Shown here: one piece after another, positions 1-5,022 of the stretch | Numbering within the stretch: position 1 is the first letter of the stretch | Layout: the number at the start of each line of letters is the position of its first letter | Notes under the pieces: model-generated | The model's database searches: none | What the model was told of the DNA's origin: nothing | Seen by the model: the letters and a program-made list of their open reading frames with translations, nothing else | Sequence record: KT184316.1 | From: Enterobacteria phage XTG1 | Strand: one strand, 5' to 3' | Length of the DNA stretch: 64,000 bases | Translations under genes and position numbers: made by a program

Positions 1-1
1 T

Positions 2-463
2 TATGGAACTAAGACTACCAACTCTTTTGACTATGGAACAAAGACCACTAACACGACTGGTAACCACAACCATGTTGGCAGTGGGTCAACAAGTGCTGCT
101 GGTGCTCACAACCACAGATTGACCTATGAATCAGGTGGTGGTTTATCTGAAAGACCTGCAATGGTTTGGTCTTCAAGAAATGACCAATCATGGTACTCAG
201 CAGATGCTGTCTGTGAAGTCGCTGGTGCTCACAGCCACTCTTTCAGTGTTACCACTAACACAACTGGTAACCACAACCATACGGTTGGTATTGGTGCTCA
301 CAGCCACACAGTTGGTATTGGTTCACATACACACAATGGTACTGTAACAGTTTCTTCTTCTGAACATACGCATAGCGGGAACACTAATAGTGTTGGTGGT
401 GGACAAGCTTTCAACATTGAGCAGCCATCCTTTGTACTGTATGTATGGCAGAGAACAGCTTAA
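2..463 (+). CDS. Tail fibre protein, C-terminal fragment (5' end lies outside the window)
   Basis: Frame is open from the window start to the stop at 461-463; Gly/Ser/Thr-rich with repeated His-box motifs (GNHNH, GAHSHT, GSHTHN, EHTHS); C-terminus ...YVWQRTA parallels the next ORF (...MAWVRTA). Confidence 0.7.
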   Translation, partial: YGTKTTNSFDYGTKTTNTTGNHNHVGSGSTSAAGAHNHRLTYESGGGLSERPAMVWSSRNDQSWYSADAVCEVAGAHSHSFSVTTNTTGNHNHTVGIGAHSHTVGIGSHTHNGTVTVSSSEHTHSGNTNSVGGGQAFNIEQPSFVLYVWQRTA

Positions 464-468
464 TTTCT

Positions 469-495
469 TTACAGGGGCTTGATAGCCCCTTTTAA
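469..495 (+). terminator. Intrinsic terminator-like hairpin after the first tail-fibre gene
   Basis: aggggcttgatagcccct stem-loop followed by TTTT; also preceded by TTTACA, so it may double as a hairpin-embedded promoter. Confidence 0.5.
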
Positions 496-509
496 GAGGA
501 AAATTTATA

Positions 510-2894
510 ATGGCAGATTACAAGTTGAGTGAATTAAACTCAATCGATACAATCCGTTCAGATGACCTTCTTCATGTCAGAGTTAAAAAGAGACCTGAAA
601 TGCTTGGCGATGAAGACCGTCGAATGACCTATCAAGATTTCTTAGCATCTTTTAAACTTGAGAGATTTGTTCAGATTGCTGGTAGCACTATGACAGGTGA
701 CTTAGGGATTGTTAAGTTACTTTATGGTGGTAAGGTAGTATTTAACCCAACAGGCTCTTCTGAGATTAATATTGGGGATGTTTTAAAGACTTTTAAAATC
801 AACGCAAATGGCCTTAAACTGACTATTGCAGACACTTCAAGGTCGGCAACTGTTTATCATACTCTGAATAAGCCAAGCCCTAATGAACTTGGGATGAGAA
901 CTAATGAAGAGAATGATGCAAGGTATGCAAGACTAGCTATCACAAACACATTCTCTGGAACTCAAAATATTCAAGGTGATGCTAACTTACTTCGCCTTAG
1001 AAACCAAAATGCAAATAATGCACAATATATCGAAGGTGTAAACCTAGATGGCTCGGCTAGATGGTGGGTTGGTATTGGTAGTAATGGCTCTGACGAAGTA
1101 AAGCTGTACAATAACAAATACAACTCAGCCTTGACTGTTGCAAGTAATGTCTCTGTTAATAAGTCTTTAGCAATCACTGGTCAAGTTCAACCTTCTGACT
1201 TCTCTAACTTAGATGCTAGATACTTTACTCAGACAGTAGCTAATCAGAGATTTGCACAGTTAGCTGCGAATAACAATTTCACTGGCACTAACACGTTTAG
1301 CAGAAACCTACTTATTATCAGTGACAGTGCTGCTTTAAGGTTGAAAAATGCAACAACTAGCTCACTATTCATTCAGGGTGTTGACTCTCAGAACACTAAC
1401 AGGTGGTATGTAGGGAACGGGGATAACACAGCCTCTGTGCTGCTACACAACTATGTACACGGTTCAAATATCAGACTTGATGATGGCTATATCTCAGTCA
1501 ACCAGAACTTCAGAATCACTGGTCAAGTTCAACCTTCGGATTGGATTAATATTGACTCTAGATATATTCCGGCAGCAACTTTGAGTAACCTACCTAAGCT
1601 TAATGTTGCTAACACATTTGTGAATGTGCAAACTATTGTATCAAATAATGAAGGCGTAGTATTAAGAAACTTAACACAGGGGCAGCCACAATATATCCGT
1701 GGTGTTGATACCCAGAATGTATCTAGGTGGTGGGTAGGTGTGGGTGGCACAAATTCTACTGATGTGGCATTAAACAACAGCTACTCTGGGACTCAAATTA
1801 CTCTTATGCCTTCAGCGATTAAGGCTAATAAGAACCTAACCATTACTGGTCAAGTTCAACCTTCTGATTGGTCTAACTTAGATGCTAGATATTTTGTTAA
1901 AACTCAGTTATTAAACCAATCCTTAATGACTGTTTCTGTAGATAACCTTGAAAACCCTTCAGGTTTTAATCTTGGATATTCAGGTTTTGTCAGAAACAAT
2001 CAGGTTGCTAGTGGACTGAGAGAATTGGCAATTCATGTTGCTCACTCTAATAAGACTGCTGCACATGCAAGAGGAATCTCTTTTGTGTATGGCTCAAATG
2101 GACTGGCAACATTTACCTATGCCTATGACAAAAATGGTGACTATGCCGGAGAGGCACAGCTTTACACAACTGATTTTAAACCAACCCCTTCAGATATCGG
2201 TGCATACACTAAAGCTGAAACTGACCAGAAGATTGCACAGGCAGTAAGTGACTCTACAGACCTTAATAAAATCTACCCAGTTGGTATTGTAACGTGGTTT
2301 AACAGTAATGTTGACCCTAACACAGCGTTGCCTGGGTTAACTTGGACGTACCTGAATAATGGTGTTGGTAGAACTATCAGGATTGCAGCAGCAAACGGTT
2401 CAGATGTTGCTACAACAGGTGGTTCAGATTCTGTGACGTTAGCTGTTGGTAACTTGCCATCACACACTCATAGTTTCTCTGCTACCACTTCATCTTTTGA
2501 TTATGGTACGAAGAACACTAATAGTACTGGTGGTCATACTCACTCTGTAAGTGGTACAACAAGTGCTGCTGGTAACCACGCCCACCACTTAGGTCTGCTA
2601 TTGGTTAATGGTGGTGATGCTCAGTATGGTTACACAACTGTTAGCAACAGCAAGACAAGAACTCTTGACTGGCTTGATAGAAAAGATAACAAATTCCCTA
2701 ACACTAACACAACTGGTAACCATACACACACATGGTCTGGTACTACAAGTAACACTGGTGCTCACACCCACTCTGTAGGTATCGGTGCTCACACTCATAC
2801 AGTTAGTGGTAACACTGGTGGTACAGGTTCTGGTTCAGCATTCAGTGTTACTAACCAGTTCTACAAGTTAATGGCTTGGGTAAGAACTGCTTAA
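510..2894 (+). CDS. Tail fibre protein with internal repeats and His-box C-terminal domain
   Basis: 794 aa; strong SD aagagga before ATG; three copies of ITGQVQPSD(F/W)xN(L/I)D(A/S)RY; C-terminal HTHS/NHAHH/AHTHS/AHTHT motifs paralogous to the upstream fragment. Confidence 0.8.
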   Translation: MADYKLSELNSIDTIRSDDLLHVRVKKRPEMLGDEDRRMTYQDFLASFKLERFVQIAGSTMTGDLGIVKLLYGGKVVFNPTGSSEINIGDVLKTFKINANGLKLTIADTSRSATVYHTLNKPSPNELGMRTNEENDARYARLAITNTFSGTQNIQGDANLLRLRNQNANNAQYIEGVNLDGSARWWVGIGSNGSDEVKLYNNKYNSALTVASNVSVNKSLAITGQVQPSDFSNLDARYFTQTVANQRFAQLAANNNFTGTNTFSRNLLIISDSAALRLKNATTSSLFIQGVDSQNTNRWYVGNGDNTASVLLHNYVHGSNIRLDDGYISVNQNFRITGQVQPSDWINIDSRYIPAATLSNLPKLNVANTFVNVQTIVSNNEGVVLRNLTQGQPQYIRGVDTQNVSRWWVGVGGTNSTDVALNNSYSGTQITLMPSAIKANKNLTITGQVQPSDWSNLDARYFVKTQLLNQSLMTVSVDNLENPSGFNLGYSGFVRNNQVASGLRELAIHVAHSNKTAAHARGISFVYGSNGLATFTYAYDKNGDYAGEAQLYTTDFKPTPSDIGAYTKAETDQKIAQAVSDSTDLNKIYPVGIVTWFNSNVDPNTALPGLTWTYLNNGVGRTIRIAAANGSDVATTGGSDSVTLAVGNLPSHTHSFSATTSSFDYGTKNTNSTGGHTHSVSGTTSAAGNHAHHLGLLLVNGGDAQYGYTTVSNSKTRTLDWLDRKDNKFPNTNTTGNHTHTWSGTTSNTGAHTHSVGIGAHTHTVSGNTGGTGSGSAFSVTNQFYKLMAWVRTA

Positions 2895-2901
2895 TCCCTT
2901 G

Positions 2902-2955
2902 TTGACTGATTGTTAAGATGGTGTTAATATTCTTTATGGGTATTCTCACCATCTT
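2902..2955 (+). promoter_or_regulatory. Sigma70-like promoter (TTGACT-17-TAATAT) overlapped by a 9-bp inverted repeat
   Basis: TTGACT 2902-2907, TAATAT 2925-2930; inverted repeat aagatggtg (2915-2923) / caccatctt (2947-2955). Confidence 0.45.
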
Positions 2956-2973
2956 GGCTGATGAGGTGATTAA

Positions 2974-3171
2974 ATGCCTACAATCCTAGCAATTCTTCTA
3001 AAAAATCTAGGTAGCTTCTTCTGGAAACTCATTTTATCCCTTCTAAGTGAATACATGATTGAGAAAGTGTTCTTTAGGCTTGCAAGATACCTTGCGAGTA
3101 AAACAGACACACCTATTGATGATGAGTTCGTAGATAACTTAGAAAAAGCTTTTAAGGGGGAGAATAAATGA
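2974..3171 (+). CDS. Hypothetical small protein downstream of tail fibre
   Basis: 65-aa ORF with hydrophobic N-terminus, 4-nt overlap with next ORF. Confidence 0.35.
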   Translation: MPTILAILLKNLGSFFWKLILSLLSEYMIEKVFFRLARYLASKTDTPIDDEFVDNLEKAFKGENK

Positions 3172-3539
3172 AGTGGCTAGAGGAAGCTTTTAAAAATAAT
3201 ATTGGTGCAATTGTAGTTGGTATTTTTAGTGTTATTGGGATGTATACCACCATGCAAGTCTCGGATGGTAAGCAAGAAGTGTCTGTCACAACAAAGTTAC
3301 AGCAGTTAGATAATTATTCCAAAAGTAACTATTCAGCTATTCGTGATTTACAGTCTGACATGAGACTGATTCAGCTAGGGATGGAGAACCAGAAAGTTCA
3401 GTTAGAGAATGTTAAGGGTGAAAACGCAAAACTTACCAAAACTCTTGATAAATTCTCTGACAGTGTGAACAATCTGGCTCAATCAGTATCAGCCCTCCAA
3501 GCTATTACTGAAAAGAACACAAAGAATACTGAAAGATAA
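3168..3539 (+). CDS. Hypothetical membrane-anchored coiled-coil protein
   Basis: 123 aa; N-terminal TM helix (GAIVVGIFSVIGMY) then heptad-rich segment; possibly a fibre assembly or lysis accessory protein. Confidence 0.45.
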   Translation: MKWLEEAFKNNIGAIVVGIFSVIGMYTTMQVSDGKQEVSVTTKLQQLDNYSKSNYSAIRDLQSDMRLIQLGMENQKVQLENVKGENAKLTKTLDKFSDSVNNLAQSVSALQAITEKNTKNTER

Positions 3540-3545
3540 AATTTA

Positions 3546-3572
3546 AGGCTCCTTTTTACGGGAGCCTTTTTT
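3546..3572. terminator. Bidirectional intrinsic terminator between convergent genes
   Basis: aggctcc-tttttacg-ggagcct hairpin followed by T6; sits between plus-strand ORF end 3539 and minus-strand gene end 3576. Confidence 0.6.
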
Positions 3573-3575
3573 GTT

Positions 3576-4475
3576 TTACTTGCCTACTGACAGAGGTGCT
3601 TCAATCTTCCCTGCATGTTGGTAGTTGTTAATTCCACCAATAAAGTCACTTGCAGTAAGATGTTTTAAGTCACTTAAAGTGTTAAGCTGTACACCAATCT
3701 CAAAAGTAGGTGCATGGAACTCTTCATTGTTCATCAGTTCATAAACCTGCTTCATATGGTTCTGATAAATCTGAGTATCTCCAAAGACACCTATCAAGTA
3801 CCGTGGAGTGTATCCAGTCATCTTGCAAAGAACTTCTAAGATGAAGCCATAAGACGCAATGTTAAACGGAAGTCCTAAAAAGGTGTCTACAGAACGCTGA
3901 TACCATTGCAAATCCACTTCACCTTCATTAGTGATATAAATCTGAAACAGAACATGACAAGGTGCTAAAGCCATTGAGTTTGCTGCAATATCTGCTGCAT
4001 TCCAAGCATTAACAAGCATGTAACGGTCTGTGATATCACCCTTCATCTTCGTTACTAAGGTCTCTAACTGGTCTACAACACAACCATTATGACCTTCGAA
4101 GTTTCTCCACTGGACCCCATAGATTCTCCCACCTGCATCTTCTAACCAATCTTGTTCAGAAGAATAATTAGAACTTAACCATCGTTTAAAATCATCTGAC
4201 CAGATAGTCCAGCGTTTCCCATCATTTTCACCCCAAGTACGGTAACGAAGTTCACCAAGTTTATTCTCACCATTCAGGAACCATAAAGCTTCCCCAATGA
4301 CTTGCCGTGTAAACACCTGTTTAGATGTTAAGAGCGGGAAACCAGTTCGCATATCAAAACGAAACTGAGGTGGAGCAAATGCAGAGATAACATCTCCAGT
4401 TCGTGTAGTACGCAGTTCACCAACGGATAAAACATGGTTCAGGATATTTTTGTAACTTGAATCTGCTTGTGACAT
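3576..4475 (-). CDS. thyA: Thymidylate synthase
   Basis: 299 aa; thymidylate synthase family signatures in translation (…RQVIGEALWFLNGE…, …ALAPCHVLFQ…). Confidence 0.93.
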   Translation of the reverse strand: MSQADSSYKNILNHVLSVGELRTTRTGDVISAFAPPQFRFDMRTGFPLLTSKQVFTRQVIGEALWFLNGENKLGELRYRTWGENDGKRWTIWSDDFKRWLSSNYSSEQDWLEDAGGRIYGVQWRNFEGHNGCVVDQLETLVTKMKGDITDRYMLVNAWNAADIAANSMALAPCHVLFQIYITNEGEVDLQWYQRSVDTFLGLPFNIASYGFILEVLCKMTGYTPRYLIGVFGDTQIYQNHMKQVYELMNNEEFHAPTFEIGVQLNTLSDLKHLTASDFIGGINNYQHAGKIEAPLSVGK

Positions 4476-4476
4476 A

Positions 4477-5022
4477 TCAAAAGTGTCCTTTTACTTGTGG
4501 AACATAAATTTCAAAAGTTGCTTTACTATCCTCTGATGGTTTTGACTGTACCTTTGTAAATACACGGTTATCATACAGCTTCTCAAAGAAGTTTTCAAAA
4601 GGTAAATGCACAGTGGCCTCTTCAGTAACTTTATGGAAGACTGTATGGAACACCACACCAGCATACGGTAAAGCATTGACAAGGACACCTGCACCACCAA
4701 TTACAAAGACATCTTCATCAATAGAGCTATCAAGATACTTCAAAAATGCTCCAAATGACTCTTTACTGGCTTTAGCATACATTACATCATCTTTGCCAAA
4801 GTCTATACCTAAGTGTGGTACAGAGTTTGTTAAGATGAGGTTTGCACGTTCTGGTAAAGGCTTACTCCCCAGAGTCTTGAAAGTCTCATTACCCATCACT
4901 ACTAAGTTGTTTTTAGTGAGTCTCTTAAACTCTTGCATATCTTGCTTATGTCGAGGCCACGGCATACCAGTCGGTGTACCAAATTCACCGTTTTCACCAC
5001 TTGCAAATATTAGTTTAATCAT
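4477..5022 (-). CDS. folA: Dihydrofolate reductase
   Basis: 181 aa; N-terminal MIKLIFA…GMPW and central VVMGNETFK…ERANLILT motifs typical of DHFR; adjacent to thymidylate synthase as in T-even phages (frd-td). Confidence 0.88.
   Translation of the reverse strand: MIKLIFASGENGEFGTPTGMPWPRHKQDMQEFKRLTKNNLVVMGNETFKTLGSKPLPERANLILTNSVPHLGIDFGKDDVMYAKASKESFGAFLKYLDSSIDEDVFVIGGAGVLVNALPYAGVVFHTVFHKVTEEATVHLPFENFFEKLYDNRVFTKVQSKPSEDSKATFEIYVPQVKGHF

Follow-up and report, generated by a model that had tools for sequence, protein, structure and literature searches.

The tail-fibre locus

The window analysed here is the whole stretch of 64,000 nucleotides from Enterobacteria phage XTG1 (KT184316.1). 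It opens on two genes read from the plus strand: the 3′ part of the short tail fibre (STF) gene (2..463; translation of the last 153 amino acids plus stop), whose frame is open at the left edge and which ends in FVLYVWQRTA, and a complete long tail fibre (LTF) gene (510..2894; 794 aa) ending in FYKLMAWVRTA. We assign the pair with high confidence to a Felixounavirus (a Felix O1-like myophage) and regard it as the end of the STF and the whole of the LTF, both with tips of the T4 gp37 type. Positions 1-3600 are 98.8% identical to Felixounavirus LF82P3 and 97.7% identical to KhF1; both records, like those of all close relatives, annotate the two corresponding genes as tail fibres. The LTF is 100% identical to the annotated ‘tail fibers protein’ of XTG1 and aligns end to end with the tail-fibre family phrog_4277 (aa 1-794 against 780 profile positions, E = 0). 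The STF fragment is identical at 150-151 of 153 residues (98-99%) to the 395-aa STF of KhF1 and LF82P3, and the full-length KhF1 protein matched phrog_2097, ‘tail fiber protein’ (1e-137). The NCBIfam search returned no family for either fibre.

The orthologues of the STF and LTF are, respectively, gp76 and gp77 of Felix O1 (described in 2010), gp74 and gp75 of VpaE1 (2015), and gp52 and gp53 of Sf14 and gp26 and gp27 of Bas63 (cryo-EM, 2025). Virion proteomics and cryo-EM of these orthologues are in print (PMC3185647, PMC4690856, PMC12609058), and mass spectrometry of virions has identified Felix O1 gp77 and the two VpaE1 fibres. Together with the end-to-end PHROG matches and the annotation of relatives, these data support the earlier sequence-only reading that two tail-fibre genes lie here. 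The fibre genes, T4-like tips, HxH motifs and repeated shaft domains are already known, from GenBank annotation and from structural papers, and the XTG1 window itself adds little new significance because its genes and features have been published.

A GC-rich hairpin (GGGGCUU-GAUA-GCCCC, then UUUU) occupies the plus strand between the two genes (473..490) and folds at -16.5 kcal/mol (z = -3.4). In KhF2 the corresponding site carries a Rho-independent terminator in the depositors' annotation, and a consensus terminator scan did not call the hairpin; the element resembles a weak terminator or attenuator. Downstream of the LTF gene, the open reading frames at 2974-3171 and 3168-3539 matched only PHROGs of no known function; no Pfam or NCBIfam hit passed its cut-off. 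A family search of the adjacent open reading frames found no gp38- or gp57A-like chaperone gene adjoining the fibre genes. The 16-nt core of the element that follows the LTF gene is not a repeated motif within the window.

The LTF begins with a conserved domain (aa 1-129; 510..896, plus strand; 93-99% conserved in 120 homologues), which is presumed to bind the baseplate, after the cryo-EM description of Bas63 (PMC12609058). Three tandem beta modules follow (aa 130-238, 239-352 and 353-461; 897..1892, plus strand), each closed by an ITGQVQPSD..RY linker. There are exactly three copies of the pattern ITGQVQPSD[FW]xN[LI]D[AS]RY, at aa 222, 336 and 445 (nt 1173-1223, 1515-1565 and 1842-1892), with spacings of 114 and 109 aa. 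The thrice-repeated module at about 110-aa spacing that had been noted from the sequence is thus real, and it extends beyond the motif: whole modules of about 110 aa repeat, with pairwise identities of 40-42%. Three stretches of the LTF matched Pfam PF20744 (gp37_trimer; E 3e-78, 258 bits, cut-off 21.7), and a profile of the module matched residues 368-436 of T7 gp17 (4a0u, E 8e-9). AlphaFold2 (AF2) models the modules as three beta-rich domains, each mostly at pLDDT 77-93. In Foldseek searches with this model the best match was again T7 gp17 (4a0u; E 8e-4, probability 1.00), with weaker matches to T4 gp34 (E ∼ 0.03, probability 0.7-0.87). When the LTF and STF were searched with an HMM of the three modules, the LTF showed no fourth or fifth copy and the STF no copy at all, so that two of the ‘five beta domains’ of Bas63 are not recognizably homologous to the modules by sequence.

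Beyond the modules lies a distal shaft domain (aa 462-585; 1893..2264, plus strand), which closes with a degenerate KPTPSDIGAYTKAETDQK linker. In tblastn searches aa ∼ 376-583 matched T4-like distal fibre proteins (gp36/gp37 of Aeromonas and RB49-type phages), and aa 544-583 gave a weak match to Pfam gp37_C. Felix O1, Z31 and CRP22 vary in this block. The most variable parts of the LTF among its 120 closest homologues are shaft modules 1 and 2, not the head; the shaft too may thus have a part in host interaction.

Tip architecture and predicted metal binding

The collar domain of the LTF tip (aa ∼ 586-646; 2265..2447, plus strand) is almost invariant in the 120 homologues and falls within a match to Pfam Gp10_C (aa 586-700) that was below cut-off. 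The needle, head and C-terminal strand follow (aa 647-794; 2448..2891, plus strand) and are homologous to the T4 gp37 tip (2xgf): phmmer aligned aa 647-773 with 2xgf at E 2e-19, and 2xgf was the sole match of a sequence profile (A1; E 1.2e-14). Six HxH motifs are present in the LTF, all within aa 652-763 (nt 2463-2471, 2535-2543, 2577-2585, 2721-2729, 2763-2771 and 2790-2798, plus strand). They align with T4 histidines 883/885, 915/917, 929/931, 966/968, 980/982 and 989/991, numbered from the 2xgf alignment and from PMC6957217; the 998/1000 site is absent, leaving six of the seven T4 sites matched. The head loop, which we class as type ‘I’, spans aa 693-737 (nt 2586-2720, plus strand).

The STF needle region (65..373, plus strand) is also rich in histidine pairs, with HxH at nt 65-73, 107-115, 230-238, 272-280, 299-307, 326-334 and 365-373; all 14 histidines of the 153-aa fragment belong to such pairs. 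The full-length STF of near-identical relatives (395 aa) has nine, two of which lie upstream of the window. KhF1 STF matched Pfam Gp10_C (1e-18) and, over aa 146-367, the T4 tip (2xgf, E 1e-26). Five of the seven motifs in the fragment align with T4 histidines 915/917, 929/931, 966/968, 980/982 and 989/991, and the T4 883/885 site aligns with a motif upstream of the window. The motif at nt 326-334 (GSHTHN) falls beside T4 998/1000, one column out of register in the alignment, and that at nt 365-373 (EHTHS) has no T4 counterpart. The STF tip as a whole thus has six aligned T4 sites, a seventh one column off, and two extra. Its head loop, the presumed receptor-contact segment (type ‘A’; 116..229, plus strand; RLTYESGGGLSERPAMVWSSRNDQSWYSADAVCEVAGA), is flanked by the central HxH motifs; in the alignment its T4 counterpart is the head segment from H931 to H966.

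The HxH-rich C-termini described in the sequence-only reading exceed shuffled expectation in both proteins. For the STF fragment seven motifs compare with a mean of 1.19 (P = 5e-5); for the LTF the mean is 0.47 and none of 20,000 shuffles reached six. These shuffles rule out low-complexity chance as the source of either cluster. The same reading had proposed a T4-type metal-coordinating needle, and here too the data agree, on grounds of homology: both tips match 2XGF, with HxH motifs in register with the T4 histidines, and in T4 gp37 H929 and H931 bind iron (PMC6957217). Gene identity, homology and motif register together indicate that both fibres carry a tip of the T4 gp37 type. An AF2 model of the LTF tip (aa 560-794, single chain, 64-sequence alignment) reached only pLDDT 61, with an unstructured needle and only the collar confident. 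A monomer cannot represent an interwoven trimer, so the model counts neither for nor against the tip fold. Foldseek found nothing significant in the PDB for this monomer model (best match the C-terminal domain of T4 gp10, E 2.7). Since the monomer model is poor, the case for the tip fold is drawn from sequence homology and published trimer models.

These observations suggest the following structural model. Both proteins would be homotrimeric fibres, each anchored to the baseplate by its conserved N-terminal domain and each ending in a tip made of a collar, a six-stranded beta needle and a small head loop. Within the needle, each HxH motif, contributed by three chains, is predicted to enclose a single metal ion (Fe2+ in T4). 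The motifs are arranged around a single hypervariable loop, three on either side in the LTF and four and five in the STF, and the C-terminal strand is conserved; this layout is what would be predicted of a chain that reverses at the head domain, a topology consistent with the sequence. The head loop at the turn would touch the receptor, probably LPS sugars in this genus, and the chain would then return up the needle and finish close to the collar, in the conserved ..W.RTA strand. The extra length of the LTF would come from its three tandem T7 gp17 pyramid-like beta domains (PF20744), presumably joined by the ITGQVQPSD..RY linkers as short helix-and-turn pieces.

Head exchange and possible receptor specificities

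The C-termini of the two fibres had been called paralogous, and they are: the STF and LTF align at 35% identity over ∼ 230 aa (E 3e-22). The near-identity of the final residues (WQRTA and WVRTA) also stands as an observation, but it fails as a sign of recency, because ..LM.W.R.A is a family-wide C-terminal signature conserved in 64 diverse enterobacterial prophage tips. The head loops tell the two proteins apart, with 16% protein identity and about 43-46% DNA identity. Among relatives they are the most exchanged segments, and the His boxes and C-terminus are conserved. The STF loop, for example, is only 35-47% identical in nucleotide sequence to those of Felix O1, JH2 and VpaE1, between conserved flanks. 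In a comparison of the window with 33 related loci we distinguished at least eight STF head types, ten LTF head types and 11 combinations. In this set the head loops behave as cassettes with His boxes at their borders, and those of the two fibres are reassorted independently of each other.

Exchange also takes place between the two fibres. The STF and LTF of the Felix O1 group carry the same head (94-100% identity), which shows that intragenomic copying does occur in the genus; in JH2 the two heads are 71% identical. In Felix O1 and UAB_Phi87 the STF and LTF share a tract of ∼ 180 nt at 80-100% identity with flanks mostly at 33-66%, and in VpaE1_ev78 a swap of the LTF head cassette is confined to nt 2533-2798, from the second to the sixth HxH. 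We tentatively propose, at slightly less than even odds, that the heads of both fibres belong to a single pool of small recombining cassettes (about 100-270 nt, with His-box DNA at either end), which are reassorted independently between phages and can be copied from one fibre gene to the other within a genome. If so, a phage could switch between a ‘two receptors’ state, as in XTG1, and a state with ‘one receptor on both fibres’, as in the Salmonella-specific Felix O1 group. We found no description of such a head-cassette pool in the open-access literature on His boxes and Felixounavirus fibre recombination.

A related proposal, which we consider evenly balanced, is that the ITGQVQPSD..RY motif, besides serving as a structural linker, and the His boxes act as DNA homology anchors for exchange of modules and heads between phages and between fibre genes. 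The variable blocks of the LTF (modules 1, 2 and 3, the domain at aa 470-550 and the head) are each flanked by highly conserved islands; those at nt 1201-1260 and 2221-2280 are 88-100% identical in 10 of 10 relatives, and the motif copies 77-100%. The confined swap in VpaE1_ev78 and the shared tract in Felix O1 and UAB_Phi87, with its divergent flanks, point the same way. Codon identity at conserved residues is also higher in the motif (30/42) than elsewhere in the modules (37/85), and the three copies encode TGQVQP with the same codons. However, conserved DNA may reflect no more than strong protein constraint combined with codon bias; the breakpoints were read off identity profiles and are not statistical, and the codon test was post hoc and small. 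The anchor idea would not be a new principle, having reportedly been proposed in the 1990s for the T-even gp37/gp38 locus, and the cassette principle likewise echoes older T-even work.

Since the head loops of XTG1 are unrelated to each other, a single virion probably presents two different surfaces for receptor binding, and it is plausible, judging from this divergence, that the STF and LTF have two distinct receptor specificities. The role of the STF head as a receptor binder is only presumed, because in retracted Bas63 virions it sits against the tail sheath, between sheath domains (PMC12609058). This location would suit an arrangement in which the LTF alone is the true receptor-binding protein, and the STF is mainly a structural or trigger element, for example in sheath locking or in a second, irreversible contact, and does not determine host range. 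The BASEL paper describes the role of the short fibre in the genus as unexplored, and Felix O1 gp76 had a proteomic coverage of only 9% and was omitted from the list in the Felix O1 proteomics paper. We nevertheless think such a division of labour unlikely: the STF head exists in at least eight unrelated types that reassort independently of the LTF head, a pattern typical of receptor-contact surfaces under diversifying selection, and the STF tip is a closer match to T4 gp37 than the LTF tip. Least probable by far is the recent host-range duplication of the sequence-only reading, in which the two tips would have arisen within the phage lineage and still share one receptor: their common architecture, similar His boxes, almost identical last six residues and the copied heads of the Felix O1 group are outweighed by the divergence of tips and head loops given above, by the presence of both genes, diverged across the genus, in 33 of 33 typable related loci as well as in Bas63 and the Mooglevirus Sf14, and by the sharing of the C-terminal motif with diverse prophage tips. 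These comparisons indicate that the paralogy of STF and LTF is old, not recent.

Felix O1-like phages are used in Salmonella diagnostics and in biocontrol of E. coli and Salmonella. The map of conserved anchors and variable cassettes indicates sites at which an exchange of tips could give such phages new targets, and genomes with two heads or with a shared head offer a simple handle on whether the two fibres use one receptor or two.

Comparison with known fibres

The LTF shaft resembles the T4 gp34 rod (5NXH/5NXF/4UXE) in that beta domains alternate with short helix-and-turn linkers, a likeness also drawn by the authors of the Bas63 structure (PMC12609058). There is no match to gp34 at the sequence level, and the fold match is weaker than that to T7 gp17. 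Each of the three LTF modules aligns with residues 368-436 of the T7 gp17 pyramid (4A0T/4A0U). T7 gp17 has one pyramid domain followed by a beta-propeller-like tip, whereas in the LTF three stand in tandem, followed by one more shaft domain and a tip of the T4 type.

Homology to the T4 gp37 tip (2XGF) extends over collar, needle and head, and includes an FDYGTK segment and the hydrophobic C-terminal strand. The T4 tip ends a four-protein fibre (gp34-gp37), whereas the tips described here sit directly on a single-protein fibre. The LTF lacks the seventh T4 site (998/1000), the STF has two extra sites, and the head loops are unrelated to that of T4 in sequence.

The closest known systems are those of Sf14, Felix O1, VpaE1 and Bas63 (Escherichia phage JohannRWettstein); in Bas63, cryo-EM found a T4 gp37-like collar, HxH needle and head on both the STF and the LTF (PMC12609058). 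The gene order is that of the window (STF, LTF, two small open reading frames, td, frd), and gp26 and gp27 are about 64% identical to the fibres of the window (64.6% for gp27 and the LTF). The two LTFs belong to the same length class (784 aa in Bas63, 794 aa here), with ITGQVQPSD-type motifs at 223, 338 and 447 compared with 222, 336 and 445. Both have six HxH motifs, with one extra histidine beside the third in Bas63. The STFs differ more, as the window type has nine HxH motifs in 10 of 10 near relatives checked, and Bas63, like T4, has seven. The head types differ in both fibres, A and I in the window compared with E and L in Bas63.

The two fibre genes and their tips

The left end of the window encodes two tail fibres on the plus strand. 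The 3' part of the short tail fibre gene (STF; 2-463, open at the window's left edge) specifies 153 residues ending in ...FVLYVWQRTA, and the long tail fibre ORF (LTF; 510-2894) 794 residues ending in ...FYKLMAWVRTA. Near-identical relatives have an STF of 395 aa, with which the fragment agrees at 150-151 of its 153 positions; the full-length STF of a relative matches phrog_2097. LTF shows 100% identity to Enterobacteria phage XTG1's 'tail fibers protein' and is matched over its whole length by phrog_4277 (tail fibre). Window 1-3600 matched 259 phage records, nearly all Felix O1-like and from Escherichia, Salmonella and Shigella; its identity is 98.8% with Felixounavirus LF82P3 and 97.7% with phage KhF1. 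Both genes are annotated as tail fibres in KhF1 and Felix O1, 3' of baseplate genes; there, as in the window, they are followed by two small ORFs and, on the opposite strand, by thymidylate synthase and dihydrofolate reductase genes.

All 14 histidines of the STF fragment fall in seven HxH motifs (shuffle mean 1.19, P = 5e-5), and LTF carries six, confined to aa 652-763, a count reached by none of 20,000 shuffles. Both C-terminal regions match the T4 gp37 receptor-binding tip 2XGF (LTF, E 2e-19; STF, E 1e-26), which was also the sole match of a 64-sequence tip profile (E 1.2e-14). The LTF motifs at 652, 676 and 690 align on T4 His 883/885, 915/917 and 929/931, and those at 738, 752 and 761 on 966/968, 980/982 and 989/991. 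This numbering assumes that the T4 residue equals chain position + 784, and is consistent with H929/H931 being iron ligands (PMC6957217). LTF lacks a counterpart of T4's seventh HxH site. STF has nine HxH motifs in 10/10 near relatives examined, two of them upstream of the window; these are counterparts of T4's seven plus one extra at each end. A single hypervariable loop interrupts each series (3+3 in LTF, 4+5 in STF), the layout that a chain descending the needle, forming the head and returning would be expected to show. The AF2 monomer model of the tip was of poor quality and structure matching yielded nothing significant; homology to 2XGF and published trimer fits are strong arguments for the His motifs lying in a fibre-tip fold, as the sequence-only reading had proposed. 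The near-identical final residues to which it also drew attention are a family signature, since 64 diverse enterobacterial prophage tips keep the final ..LM.W.R.A strand.

The motif ITGQVQPSD[FW]xN[LI]D[AS]RY occurs at LTF aa 222, 336 and 445 (intervals of 114 and 109 aa), in agreement with the three copies at ~110-aa spacing reported earlier, and is also detected by a DNA repeat finder (family D2). The repeat unit is the whole module (aa 130-238, 239-352 and 353/354-461; pairwise identity 40-42%). Shuffles, motif counts and module identities thus establish that HxH clusters and repeats are real and far beyond chance. The three modules belong to Pfam PF20744 'gp37_trimer' (three stretches, E 3e-78). 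A module profile matched T7 gp17 residues 368-436 (E 8e-9; the solved C-terminal fragment is 371-553), which we take to be the pyramid domain. An AF2 model of aa 125-470 has three beta-rich domains, mostly at pLDDT 77-93, with short helices at the SD..N.D.RY linkers; in a fold search its best match was T7 gp17 (E 8e-4), with the T4 gp34 rod weaker.

Sequences outside the fibre genes

The 85-nt spacer 3' of the LTF stop (2892-2976) forms a very stable hairpin (-31.7 kcal/mol, z = -6.9) in which the LTF stop region is base-paired to the Shine-Dalgarno region of the following ORF; a sigma-70-like TTGACT-17-TAATAT site with TG lies there too. Its core inverted repeat, AAGATGGTG...CACCATCTT, occurs once in the window and is unaltered in nearly all related loci (one locus has a single substitution), even where the LTF N-terminus is only ~75% identical. 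The element may act as a promoter or operator, or in the control of translation.

Small ORF 1 (2974-3171, 65 aa) has a hydrophobic N-terminal segment and overlaps small ORF 2 (3168-3539, 123 aa), which has a similar segment and also a stretch resembling a coiled coil. At the DNA level the pair ranks among the best-conserved parts of the region (about 95-100% in 10/10 relatives, nt 2941-3240), whereas neighbouring genes are at roughly 85-95%. The only matches of the two ORFs were PHROGs 402 and 4038, both of unknown function. Small ORF 2 is called a holin in one GenBank record and is possibly a homologue of Sf14 gp55, described in the Sf14 paper as a virion-associated 'holin or lysozyme'; fibre assembly and lysis are candidate roles for the pair. 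A bidirectional terminator-like hairpin (3545-3568), at a place annotated as a terminator in KhF1 and KhF2, separates the fibre-side operon from the convergent td/frd genes (3576-5022, minus strand).

GC skew over 1-4000 is +0.02 in the fibre genes despite their plus-strand orientation, against +0.1 to +0.2 in most other plus-strand blocks, and probably reflects their Gly/Thr/Ser/His-rich composition. A tRNA cluster starts at 63474-63957, where ARAGORN calls Pro(tgg), Glu(ttc) and Met(cat); Rfam adds a tRNA at 63884-63957 and omits the Met gene (63727-63803).

Paralogy of the tips and apparent exchange of head loops

The STF and LTF tips are 35% identical across about 230 aa, their head loops 16% at the amino-acid and about 43-46% at the nucleotide level, and every typable related locus has both genes. 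By these measures the tips are paralogous, as had been suspected, the paralogy is old and the two head loops of this phage are unrelated; the recent duplication once suggested is rejected for the window. That the two fibres would have two receptor specificities is a reasonable inference.

A 60-nt stepwise comparison against ten annotated relatives revealed variable blocks (the STF head; all three LTF modules; the domain at aa 470-550; and the LTF head) with strongly conserved islands between them, formed by the collar, the C-terminus, the ITGQVQPSD..RY linkers and the outer His boxes. Over nt 657-2532 VpaE1_ev78 scarcely differs from the window, and it then diverges only within nt 2533-2798, bounds that are exactly the second and sixth LTF HxH. 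Such descriptive identity profiles suggest that His-box DNA may serve as a crossover site. The same idea was reportedly put forward in the 1990s for the fibre genes of T-even phages. Synonymous-codon identity was 30/42 in the linker motif versus 37/85 in the rest of the modules, in a small, post hoc test.

Head typing of the window and 33 related loci, some of them one phage present in two collections, distinguished at least 8 STF head types, at least 10 LTF types and at least 11 combinations, including A/I (this window), A/J, D/J, D/K and B/B. Two head types are shared by the two fibres within a genome. The STF and LTF head loops are 94% identical, in protein and DNA, in the Salmonella phage Felix O1 (L002 5080-8645), 100% in a UAB_Phi87-like locus of the same group of Salmonella phages, and 71% in JH2. 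In Felix O1 and UAB_Phi87 the shared tract spans about 180 nt at 80-100%, with flanks mostly at 33-66%, which looks like intragenomic copying of the head by a conversion-like event.

Some Felixounavirus LTFs are 840-855 aa long (IMG/VR loci L026, L028 and L029; P0045 and P0048); in the IMG/VR loci the tip is a variant that differs markedly, with just four HxH and a head loop of 67 aa (NRGTMEITGSFGYF...). The early end of the LTF frame in two further IMG/VR contigs, L018 and L032 (453 and 541 aa), may be due to a frameshift or an assembly error, or the gene may be truncated. The 10-nt 'cos' annotated inside the LTF CDS of KhF1 and KhF2 (L001 8146-8155; window ~2146-2155) looks like a dubious pattern match and not a real packaging site.

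Comparison with published fibres

The earlier observation on the two fibre genes was correct and its interpretation essentially so. Their biology is ordinary and already published, every element being known from the Felix O1, VpaE1, Sf14 and Bas63 papers; the sole, mildly new angle is the cassette-like sharing of head loops and their reassortment between the two fibres across the genus. In the Felix O1 genome paper (2010) gp76 and gp77 are both T4 gp37-like at the C-terminus and gp77 was detected in virions. The VpaE1 paper (2015) reports the same C-terminal likeness for gp74 and gp75, both detected in virions, with fibres conserved at the N-terminus and variable in the middle and at the C-terminus. 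The Sf14 cryo-EM paper (2025) describes two tail fibres of 391 and 792 aa, with domains like those of T7 gp17 and a distal tip resembling T4 gp37. In the Bas63 cryo-EM paper (2025), STF gp26 and LTF gp27 each have a T4 gp37-like collar, HxH needle and head, with seven HxH in STF and six plus one extra His in LTF, whose shaft has repeated beta domains with helix-and-turn motifs between them (PMC12609058); HxH counts in the Bas63 sequence agree with these. Compared directly with the Bas63 genome, the window's fibre genes are syntenic and ~64% identical, and the LTF motifs occupy the same positions (Bas63 223/338/447; window 222/336/445).
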